From contig CAWEPZ010000011.1 in NCBI GenBank assembly GCA_963811105.1, positions 1,120,001-1,184,000 on the forward strand: a stretch of 64,000 nucleotides of DNA, written 5' to 3'. The position numbers were made by a program, and so were the translations under genes. The stretch comes from Candidatus Bathyarchaeota archaeon. Lineage in GTDB: Archaea > Thermoproteota > Bathyarchaeia > Bathyarchaeales > Bathycorpusculaceae. The notes below the pieces were generated by a model, which worked only from the letters and a program-made list of their open reading frames with translations, was not told where the DNA came from and ran no database searches. Positions 35,960-38,124 of this stretch are shown piece by piece (position 1 is the stretch's first letter; each line of letters opens with the position of its first letter).

Positions 35960-36181
35960 CTATTTTCCCATGACTTTTCTAACAGCGATTTCAATATCTT
36001 CCGTCTTAATGGTCTTTCTTCCTGCATATTTAGCATAATCGAGTGCTTCTTTAGCAATCTTCATGCCAATCTCCTCAAGAACTTTTGCAAGTTCCTTCGC
36101 TGCTGCTTCACTTACCCTGTCTGCGCCAGCTTTCTCGCACAGTCGACGCATTGGAGCTAAAGCTATTTCTAATTCTTTCAT
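35960..36181 (-). CDS. Archaeal histone
   Basis: IALAPMRRL..AGADRVS...AGRKTIKTEDI histone-fold signature. Confidence 0.95.
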   Translation of the reverse strand: MKELEIALAPMRRLCEKAGADRVSEAAAKELAKVLEEIGMKIAKEALDYAKYAGRKTIKTEDIEIAVRKVMGK

Positions 36182-36309
36182 ATAGACTTTCTCCACTGTC
36201 TCTTCTTATTTTTAAGGCAGTATTAAGCTTTGTTATCTTTTTCAGCCATTTTCTTTAGCAAATTATAAATACAAATTCCTGTAATACATTAATTCCCGAG
36301 GTTGTTTTA

Positions 36310-36366
36310 ATGGCAAAGAAACCAGTTAAAAAAGAAGTAAAGAAAGCCCCGGCAAAGAAAAAGTAA
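36310..36366 (+). CDS. 18-aa Lys/Ala/Pro-rich micropeptide MAKKPVKKEVKKAPAKKK
   Basis: ATG..TAA with SD-like GAGGTTG, TTATAAAT ~45 nt upstream and a T-rich terminator after it. Confidence 0.7.
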   Translation: MAKKPVKKEVKKAPAKKK

Positions 36367-36517
36367 AACCTCGGCATAACCTACACTTATTTCTCTTTTT
36401 TCTTTTCTAAAGAATAGAACTAAAAAGAACAAAATAAATGGAGTTGGCGCCAGCTAAATCTTAGTGAGATGATTACTTTGAAAAAGTTAAGTTTATATCA
36501 AGTTCTAATGCAGAATA

Positions 36518-36901
36518 ATGAGTGAAGTGAAGTTTATGCATAAACGTATGAATCCTCGAGAGCAAAAACGCATGATGCAACGTATGGGCATGAACATGGA
36601 CTCCGTCCCAGACGTTCAACAAGTCATTATTAGAACAAGCGGCAAAGACATTGTAATCGATGAGCCTGAAGTGGCAATTCTTGAAGTGCAGGGACAAAAA
36701 ATGTACCAAGTTATTGGCGGTCAGGTATCAGAGCAAGCGCCTTCTCAACGCCAAACAGCAAATGCGGCACAGCCAGTATTCTCAGAAGAAGACGTGAGGC
36801 TGGTGGCGGACCAAACAGGTAAAAGCTTGGAGAAAGCAAAGGAAGCTCTTGAGGACTGCCAAGGCGATTTGGCGAAAGCCATACTGCTTCTTCAATCTTA
36901 G
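36518..36901 (+). CDS. nac: Nascent polypeptide-associated complex protein
   Basis: MNPREQKRMMQRMG, YQVIG, EDVRLVADQTG...GDLAKAI UBA. Confidence 0.92.
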   Translation: MSEVKFMHKRMNPREQKRMMQRMGMNMDSVPDVQQVIIRTSGKDIVIDEPEVAILEVQGQKMYQVIGGQVSEQAPSQRQTANAAQPVFSEEDVRLVADQTGKSLEKAKEALEDCQGDLAKAILLLQS

Positions 36902-37914: not shown

Positions 37915-38124
37915 ATGGGACGCATAGACAAAGGACAAAAATGCAGTGTTTCGGGCTGCGGCAGAGAAGCTGTACGTTCATTATCTTCTGATAAAGTCAA
38001 GGCTGCTGGTCTAAATGTTAGCAGCGGCGAAAAACGCGCTTATATTTGCAAAGAACACTACAAAGAATACAAGAAGAAAACCAAGAAAGATAAAACCATT
38101 GATAAGTGGCGTTACGGTCACTGA
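37915..38124 (+). CDS. Small basic Zn-finger-like protein
   Basis: CSVSGC...CKEHYKEYKK; SD GAGG; upstream of thrS. Confidence 0.75.
   Translation: MGRIDKGQKCSVSGCGREAVRSLSSDKVKAAGLNVSSGEKRAYICKEHYKEYKKKTKKDKTIDKWRYGH

Follow-up and report, generated by a model that had tools for sequence, protein, structure and literature searches.

An 18-codon open reading frame (ORF) lying in a 64,000-nucleotide stretch of Candidatus Bathyarchaeota DNA, here called the window, is very probably a real translated gene. Its product, MAKKPVKKEVKKAPAKKK, belongs to a new, class-wide family of Lys-only microproteins absent from annotation, and in one lineage of the family the gene is coupled to a histone gene. 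The reading that best accounts for the sequence evidence is that the peptide is a trans-acting polycationic binder of nucleic acids, a predicted function that we put forward tentatively. Whatever that function may be, a class-wide gene of 13 to 26 codons has been missed by all annotation.

A micro-gene head-to-head with a histone gene

As read from the sequence, the micro-ORF runs on the plus strand from an ATG at 36310 to a TAA at 36364-36366, and 9 of its 18 residues are Lys, with three Ala and two Pro. The features around it are collected in Table 1. The GAGG in front of the start codon is the GAGGU part of the Shine-Dalgarno (SD) complement to the 3' end of the genome's own 16S rRNA, ...GGATCACCTCCT. 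A T-rich run follows the frame, and oligo-T runs terminate archaeal RNA polymerase. Transcription would start about 26 nt past the center of the TATA box. The divergent neighbor, whose start codon at 36181 leaves a start-to-start gap of 128 nt, encodes a 73-residue histone fold (PF00808, E 6.5e-13; also PF00125 in Pfam), and its relatives carry the NCBI name 'histone [Candidatus Bathyarchaeia archaeon]'. Alignment shows that the block GTATTAAGCTTTGTTATC is kept in loci having the histone about 125 nt away; it is the putative histone promoter, and its position back to back with the micro-gene promoter suggests co-regulation. A preliminary description of this DNA had placed the ORF, its TATA box, SD and T-rich terminator, and a tail-less histone gene at 128 nt exactly where we find them. 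Its picture of a free-standing micro-gene equipped with a promoter, an SD and a terminator of its own holds, and translation is probable. In one sequencing run, probably of DNA, reads from relatives covered parts of the histone coding region and nothing beyond 36188, a pattern that bears on expression in neither direction.

Table 1. Features of the micro-gene and its surroundings, in window coordinates.
Feature	Position	Strand	Basis or remark
Histone gene, 73 aa, no tail	35960..36181	-	PF00808, PF00125
Putative histone 5' UTR and promoter: GGAG SD (36191-36194), TTAATA-type TATA near 36221-36228	36191..36237	-	Block GTATTAAGCTTTGTTATC conserved
Promoter of micro-gene: BRE-like TTTAGCAAA and TATA TTATAAAT (36263-36270)	36254..36272	+	TATA within longer block TTTAGCAAATTATAAATAC (36254-36272); best-conserved block of the cassette, 40 aligned loci
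Putative 5' UTR: SD GAGG (36298-36301, 8 nt to ATG) and 5' stem arm CCGAGGTT (36296-36303)	36292..36309	+	GAGG invariant in 40/40 cassettes; arm from minimum free energy (MFE) fold
Micro-ORF, 18 codons and TAA, MAKKPVKKEVKKAPAKKK	36310..36366	+	Coding signature in relatives
3' stem arm AACCTCGG, directly past the stop codon	36367..36374	+	Pairs with SD region 36296-36303
Putative terminator, oligo-T / pyrimidine-rich	36387..36407	+	T-run at the same place in aligned cassettes (columns near 185-195 of the 40-cassette alignment)
NAC gene, outside the micro-gene unit	36518..36901 (start 36518/36536)	+	PF01849; own TATA-like TTTATAT near 36493

Short Lys-rich frames are common in this genome: across all 3.49 Mb, 1243 ORFs of 9 to 35 aa pass a filter of at least 40% K+R. 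Just two of these are preceded by an SD-like as well as a TATA-like motif, namely the window ORF and a paralogue upstream of pyrD (contig C13), and the window ORF is therefore more than a chance product of A-rich DNA.

Two other stretches of the window are recorded here as side observations. Just upstream of the NAC gene, pieces of 25 to 47 nt from positions 36467-36518 recur at 83 to 93% identity elsewhere in several genomes of the genus, and this repeated stretch is probably a shared promoter or 5' region. At 37915-38124 on the plus strand lies an ORF of 69 aa that contains Cys pairs, is rich in Lys in its C-terminal part (…KEHYKEYKKKTKKDKTIDKW…) and matches nothing in Pfam; it may encode another small nucleic-acid-binding protein.

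Selection on the frame at codon level

Of 24 other genomes of the genus, 13 gave a blastn match to the block 36253-36406, at 77 to 85% identity, and 16 genomes from other families gave none. The preliminary description had proposed, as a check, to look in relatives for a conserved K/A/P ORF with synonymous variation, and it is there: the frame is conserved, at 16 to 20 codons, in all 13 aligned related loci, and more loci were found later. Length variants differ by whole codons, with indels in multiples of three. The 12 ORFs that align without gaps have two variable columns at codon position 1, four at position 2 and nine at position 3. One of the two first-position changes is the exchange of ATG and GTG at the start codon, and all four second-position changes fall in four 'spacer' codons (6, 9, 10 and 15). 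The nine Lys codons vary between AAA and AAG only, and Ala2 uses GCA, GCC, GCG and GCT. Over a wider set of 71 loci, GTG is the commonest start codon (52), followed by ATG (15) and TTG (4). On this pattern, among other grounds, we regard the gene as real and translated with high confidence. That the gene is too small for annotation pipelines, as had been surmised, agrees with our finding none of eight relatives of at least 20 aa in a collection of 15 billion proteins.

A family of Lys-rich micro-ORFs sharing one cassette

Over a family-level group of genomes, blastn matched the cassette in 61 of 201, and 27 of the 30 loci examined there hold a K-rich ORF of 13 to 23 aa at the match. Matches to the promoter only also led to K-rich ORFs, at the expected distance downstream. 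When 40 cassettes were aligned, the GAGG proved invariant and the promoter near-invariant, followed by a start codon, a Lys-rich frame, a stop codon and a T-run. A sequence-only model built on this alignment finds matches at E <= 0.01 in 88 of 151 genomes of the order, with 29/35 in the home family and 17/25, 21/35 and 12/34 in other families; at E <= 0.001 it finds them in 46 of 151 genomes of the class and 50 of 151 of the phylum. Peptides at these loci include MPKKAKGKKKKGGKK, MSKSPAGKKKKISKKKTK and MAKKKSGKKGKKGKKK. The family as we describe it comprises Lys-rich micro-ORFs of 13 to 26 aa that share the promoter/SD/terminator cassette; it is found across family, order and class, at one or two copies per genome.

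A pattern scan for promoter, SD and start codon, limited to one genome per species, returned at least 117 stretches; of the 80 listed, 73 bear Candidatus Bathyarchaeia or Bathyarchaeota in their titles. Two contigs titled Thermodesulfovibrionales bacterium and Methanocella sp. (L153 and L155) bear a typical cassette with a histone or pyrD neighbor and are probably mis-binned.

The family also has gaps. In five genomes of the genus that are 96 to 100% complete, a search without strict filters gave no convincing copy in four; the fifth, whose genome is closed and had given no blastn match, has a copy of the pyrD type. The peptide is thus widespread and not indispensable, which argues against its being a core protein of the ribosome.

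One genus in another class of the phylum has an all-purine ORF of 15 codons whose product, MKKEKKEEKKEEKKK, is identical in six loci (L131, L134, L135, L141, L144 and L148, of which four belong to single-contig genomes near 2 Mb in size), the differences being synonymous and at third positions only. It lies about 45 nt upstream of rpl14e, which is followed by cbf5, and no histone fold was found in three complete genomes of that genus. These distant, low-complexity K/E-rich micro-ORFs appear comparable to the window gene and are candidate homologues of it. A full-text literature search, followed mostly at abstract level, listed no description of such peptides.

Histone, pyrD and ferritin-like neighborhoods

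Within the genus, 12 of the 13 loci have a histone gene next to the ORF, and the genes outside the pair differ. The same association marks the KKP...KKAPAKKK subtype in the pattern scan (80 loci), where a histone gene is adjacent in 15 of 18 loci: in 12 it is divergent (nine of these at 125 to 143 nt), and in 3 it shares the strand of the micro-ORF. Of the three loci that lack a histone, two are cut off by the edge of a contig. The gene downstream of the micro-ORF varies between loci of this subtype and is on the opposite strand in several.

Other members of the family stand elsewhere. Peptides of the form MAKAPKK..KKAKKKK are encoded 153 to 209 nt upstream of pyrD (32/80 loci), and peptides of the M[AP]KAAKGKKKK type, with related ones, 136 to 344 nt upstream of the gene for a 326-aa protein with two ferritin-like domains (24/80 loci). 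This tandem ferritin-like gene also made up 14 of the 19 downstream neighbors tested in an earlier locus set; the best names for its product, bacterioferritin and Dps, are weak, and the protein has no Lys-rich tail. Because KKP-type peptides are found in the ferritin context too (L025, L027, L028, L166 and L186), the histone-linked gene looks like a relocated ferritin-linked copy, and the KKP...KKAPAKKK subtype would have moved beside the histone in this genus and a few neighboring genera. The ferritin-like gene of the present genome has no micro-ORF upstream.

The partnership with the histone that the preliminary description proposed is therefore true of a part and not of the whole. It stands within the KKP subtype, where it outlasts both inversion (the three same-strand loci) and change of the outer flanks. 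It fails for the family, and the idea of a specific histone companion goes with it: the ferritin-like and pyrD contexts are commoner, this genome carries a second histone gene without a micro-ORF of this kind, and similar micro-ORFs occur in three complete genomes of another class in which no histone fold was found.

The remaining neighbors are diverse. In two families of the order, an Alba gene is divergent from members of the MS..KKKK type at a distance of 0.5 to 0.9 kb; these Alba genes lie at L108:726-1010, L109:401-685 and L119:2091-2381, with no called ORF of at least 60 aa in between. One member lies near a gene for an RPA-like OB-fold protein (L105), one is divergent from rpl15e (L049), one is next to the gene for seryl-tRNA synthetase (SerRS; L111) and one is next to the Trm112/Cgi121 genes (L113). 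Na+/H+ exchanger, Mo-oxidoreductase/LplA and PdxS genes are also found as neighbors.

The paralogue in this genome (contig C13:66075-66223; L054:1256-1315) is upstream of pyrD-pyrK and reads MAKAPKKEEKNGKRRNKLF. Its pyrD-linked relatives read MAKAPKK..KKAKKKK, and in the MAKAPKKEEKNGKRRNKLF copy the usual KKK-stop ending is in another frame, apparently through a frameshift or an assembly error in the A-run.

Some copies are irregular in other ways. In one species (L209:2429-3529), the reading frame that begins at the micro-ORF start (MAKK...) stays open over 366 codons and takes in the tandem ferritin-like gene, a run-on that may reflect a deletion, a fusion or an assembly error, and L217 holds another disrupted copy. 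A minus-strand gene with a CAP12/Pycsar-type TIR effector domain (L026:818-1324; E 1.2e-30) comes after the histone/micro-ORF pair in one genus.

Lysine without arginine

Counted over 63 distinct peptides of the class, Lys numbers 588 and Arg 3, a Lys share somewhat inflated by the choice of candidates through K filters or, later, K+R filters, the latter of which would have passed Arg-rich forms. The remaining residues are mostly Ala, Pro, Gly, Thr, Glu and Ser, and aromatic residues are absent; over the whole family, Lys makes up 57%, Ala 20% and Pro 5%. For comparison, K/(K+R) in the long ORFs of the genome is 0.63, and the commonest Arg codon is AGA, one transition away from AAA. Against this background, the near-absence of Arg indicates that Lys itself is selected, and not charge alone. 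This exclusivity is a clean selective signal. The AAG share of Lys codons is 50% in the family against 28% genome-wide, an excess in keeping with high expression or with the avoiding of long runs of A.

A stem around the ORF in the KKP subtype

In the MFE fold, the SD region pairs with the bases directly past the stop codon to form an 8-bp stem (Table 1). Among the rows of the KKP subtype having CCTCGG after the stop, the duplex between 5' UTR and 3' UTR exceeds shuffles (z below -1.64) in 15 of 17, with z from -0.9 to -5.7, as against 1 of 44 other rows. The pairing was accordingly rejected as a family-wide feature, and the confinement of the signal to the KKP subtype makes the stem a derived feature of that subtype. 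Stem substitutions in relatives comprise three one-sided changes, all keeping G-U pairs, and no compensatory double change was seen among them. By holding the SD, the stem could stabilize the tiny mRNA or limit its translation. The fold of the whole transcript is no stabler than that of shuffled sequences (z +0.83; 163 of 200 shuffles at least as good), and no alternative hairpins were seen in it. Rfam returned six matches only, with E of at least 1.6 and 13 to 19 bits against gathering scores of 50 to 100.

A predicted polycation acting in trans

Because KKP-subtype loci differ in their downstream gene, the product probably acts in trans. We lean, by a little, to its being a nucleic-acid polycation. 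The segment 36254-36407 would work as a self-contained gene, in which a strong BRE/TATA promoter gives a transcript of about 105 nt, the GAGG directs translation of the 18-residue peptide and the oligo-T run ends transcription. Removal of Met before Ala2 would leave 17 residues with nine Lys and one Glu, and a net charge of about +8; the predicted cellular form is AKKPVKKEVKKAPAKKK, with or without acetyl or methyl groups. With KK pairs recurring at intervals of four residues, such a product would form a disordered polycation able to bind the phosphate backbone, most probably that of genomic DNA or of histone-DNA fibers. By neutralizing charge it would favor compaction, in the manner of linker-histone C-terminal tails or histone tails, and binding through Lys alone would stay dynamic and might be open to modification.

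The target is the less certain part of this reading. The histone, Alba, RPA-like and Dps-like neighbors favor DNA or chromatin, and the rpl14e-cbf5, rpl15e and tRNA-related neighbors keep an RNA or ribosome role alive, in a pattern that was recognized post hoc and has few independent relocations behind it. A chromatin target in preference to RNA or the ribosome is accordingly a prediction that we regard as doubtful, and within it an H1-tail-like role is plausible by analogy.

Most archaeal histones are tail-less. A wider version of the chromatin reading, which we think unlikely, would have free, highly expressed poly-lysine peptides of 13 to 26 residues act as 'histone tails in trans', a diffusible chromatin polycation in Bathyarchaeia and perhaps in much of the phylum. 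If true, the peptides would serve tail-less histones, Alba and Dps-like proteins as H1 and core-histone tails serve eukaryotes, their Lys residues would be available to acetylation-type control, and the window gene would be the copy physically coupled to the histone gene. The question addressed is how archaeal chromatin fibers are neutralized and compacted without linker histones or tails.

Alternative readings

The alternative that survives best is that the product is a polybasic microprotein bound to the ribosome or to rRNA, a functional analogue of eL41, bS22 or THX lying in an rRNA groove, so that the adjacency to the histone would be incidental. The tiny size, the extreme basic charge, the very strong promoter and SD, and the one or two copies per genome would all be at home there, as would the K/E micro-ORF MKKEKKEEKKEEKKK, which precedes rpl14e-cbf5 in genomes of another class that gave no histone-fold match, and the members near rpl15e, seryl-tRNA synthetase and Trm112/Cgi121. 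Alba, a recurring neighbor, binds RNA as well. The family itself fits poorly: it has 3 Arg among 591 basic residues and no aromatics, it is very plastic in length (13 to 26 aa) and sequence, paralogues of differing sequence occur within one genome, and four of the five near-complete genomes of the genus are without a convincing copy. The Ribosomal_L41 profile (PF05162) gave nothing over its cut-off, the best score (9.3 bits) being elsewhere in the genome, and none of 14 control archaeal genomes passed either, so that this search has no weight in either direction. We consider the ribosomal reading rather unlikely.

A cis-acting leader is more improbable still. Here translation, in need of charged tRNA-Lys, would tune read-through of the oligo-T run or an overlapping next promoter, and hence the downstream gene, with the peptide as a by-product. 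This reading draws on the 56 of 80 loci in which the micro-ORF is on the same strand as, and 136 to 344 nt upstream of, pyrD (32) or the ferritin-like gene (24), with a T-run in between, and on the fact that half of the codons (9/18) are for Lys, as in classical attenuator leaders; a sensor at codon level would also explain why Arg never replaces Lys. However, no downstream gene concerns lysine, the transcript (z +0.83) has no alternative hairpins, and in the window subtype the downstream genes vary and several are on the opposite strand, the NAC gene having a TATA-like element of its own. Moreover, the pyrD genes of 24 genomes outside the genus, and the ferritin-like gene of this genome, are without the ORF, so these downstream genes do not need it. 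The pyrD-leader idea in particular was rejected, as the ORF is upstream of pyrD only in the genus, where three of six pyrD loci have an intact copy and that of this genome is degenerate, and at none of the 24 other loci. A cis-leader role is possible for the pyrD- and ferritin-linked members and is a poor fit to the window gene.

That the transcript is a non-coding, A-rich small RNA with an incidental frame, or that the antisense Phe-rich ORF at 36255-36377 is the true gene, is scarcely credible: an 8-bp stem does join the transcript ends, the region is purine-rich and a 40-aa antisense ORF exists, but the codon-position pattern, the whole-codon indels, the conserved start and stop and the fixed SD spacing argue for plus-strand translation, purine-keeping A<->G changes giving Arg or Glu at Lys codons are absent, and no Rfam match comes near its gathering score. 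The antisense ORF was rejected because only 4 of the 13 aligned loci retain its ATG (CAT at 36375-36377).

Comparison with known systems

Attenuator leaders, such as the bacterial amino-acid and pyrBI leaders, share with the family a short ORF rich in one codon family, then a terminator, then a gene that is mostly on the same strand. The family differs from them in having no alternative hairpins and downstream genes unrelated to lysine, and in the window subtype the downstream gene varies or faces away.

The polybasic ribosomal microproteins eL41, bS22 and THX are Arg-rich, often contain Trp or Tyr and are conserved in sequence; of eL41 in particular, presence in every genome of a lineage would be expected. 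The shared features are a size of 15 to 35 aa, extreme positive charge, strong expression signals and a record of being routinely missed by gene callers. In contrast, the present family is Lys-only and plastic in length and sequence, has paralogues and is seemingly absent from some genomes of the genus, and its Arg count and distribution given above depart from the eL41 feature set.

Bacterial nucleoid proteins provide parallels in composition. The C-terminal tails of HU/Hlp, as well as Hc1 and AlgP, have Lys/Ala/Pro repeats that are fused to a folded domain and bind DNA non-specifically. Low-complexity repeats resembling AKKA or PAKK are common to these proteins, to Dps tails and to our peptide, in which, however, the repeat is a stand-alone gene product. 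A histone N-terminal tail is likewise continuous with its fold, whereas the peptide has a gene of its own, on the strand opposite to the histone gene and 128 nt from that gene's start. Of 15 longer histone predictions (86 to 124 aa) picked from the 120 best matches listed, none carries a fused K/A/P tail; their extra lengths are unrelated upstream read-through extensions. In its passages on these points, one study reports that a Bathyarchaeota histone has an N-terminal tail (Henneman et al. 2018, PMC6136690), that archaeal histones form dimers and hypernucleosomes with no defined linker or dyad site, and that linker histones homologous to H1 have not been found in archaea (PMC6136690).

The likeness to H1 drawn in the preliminary description is borne out as to the K/A/P make-up and the KKxx periodicity. 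Kinship is another matter: no homology was detected, in sequences whose low complexity precludes a homology test. For four homologues of 20 to 23 aa, Pfam gave no family at E <= 10, and searches of NCBIfam and PDB sequences with homologues of that length gave nothing but one NCBIfam match at E 1.2. The H1 C-terminal domain is about 100 residues long against the 18 of the peptide, which has neither a winged-helix globular domain nor an S/TPxK motif and is encoded by a separate micro-gene in a family whose members are mostly not histone-linked. What the two share is a K/A/P composition dominated by Lys and nearly free of Arg, a spacing of basic pairs at about every four residues and an expected disorder, and by analogy the peptide could neutralize DNA charge between or around histone-wrapped segments. 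The peptide may thus work like an H1 tail, yet it is not an H1.
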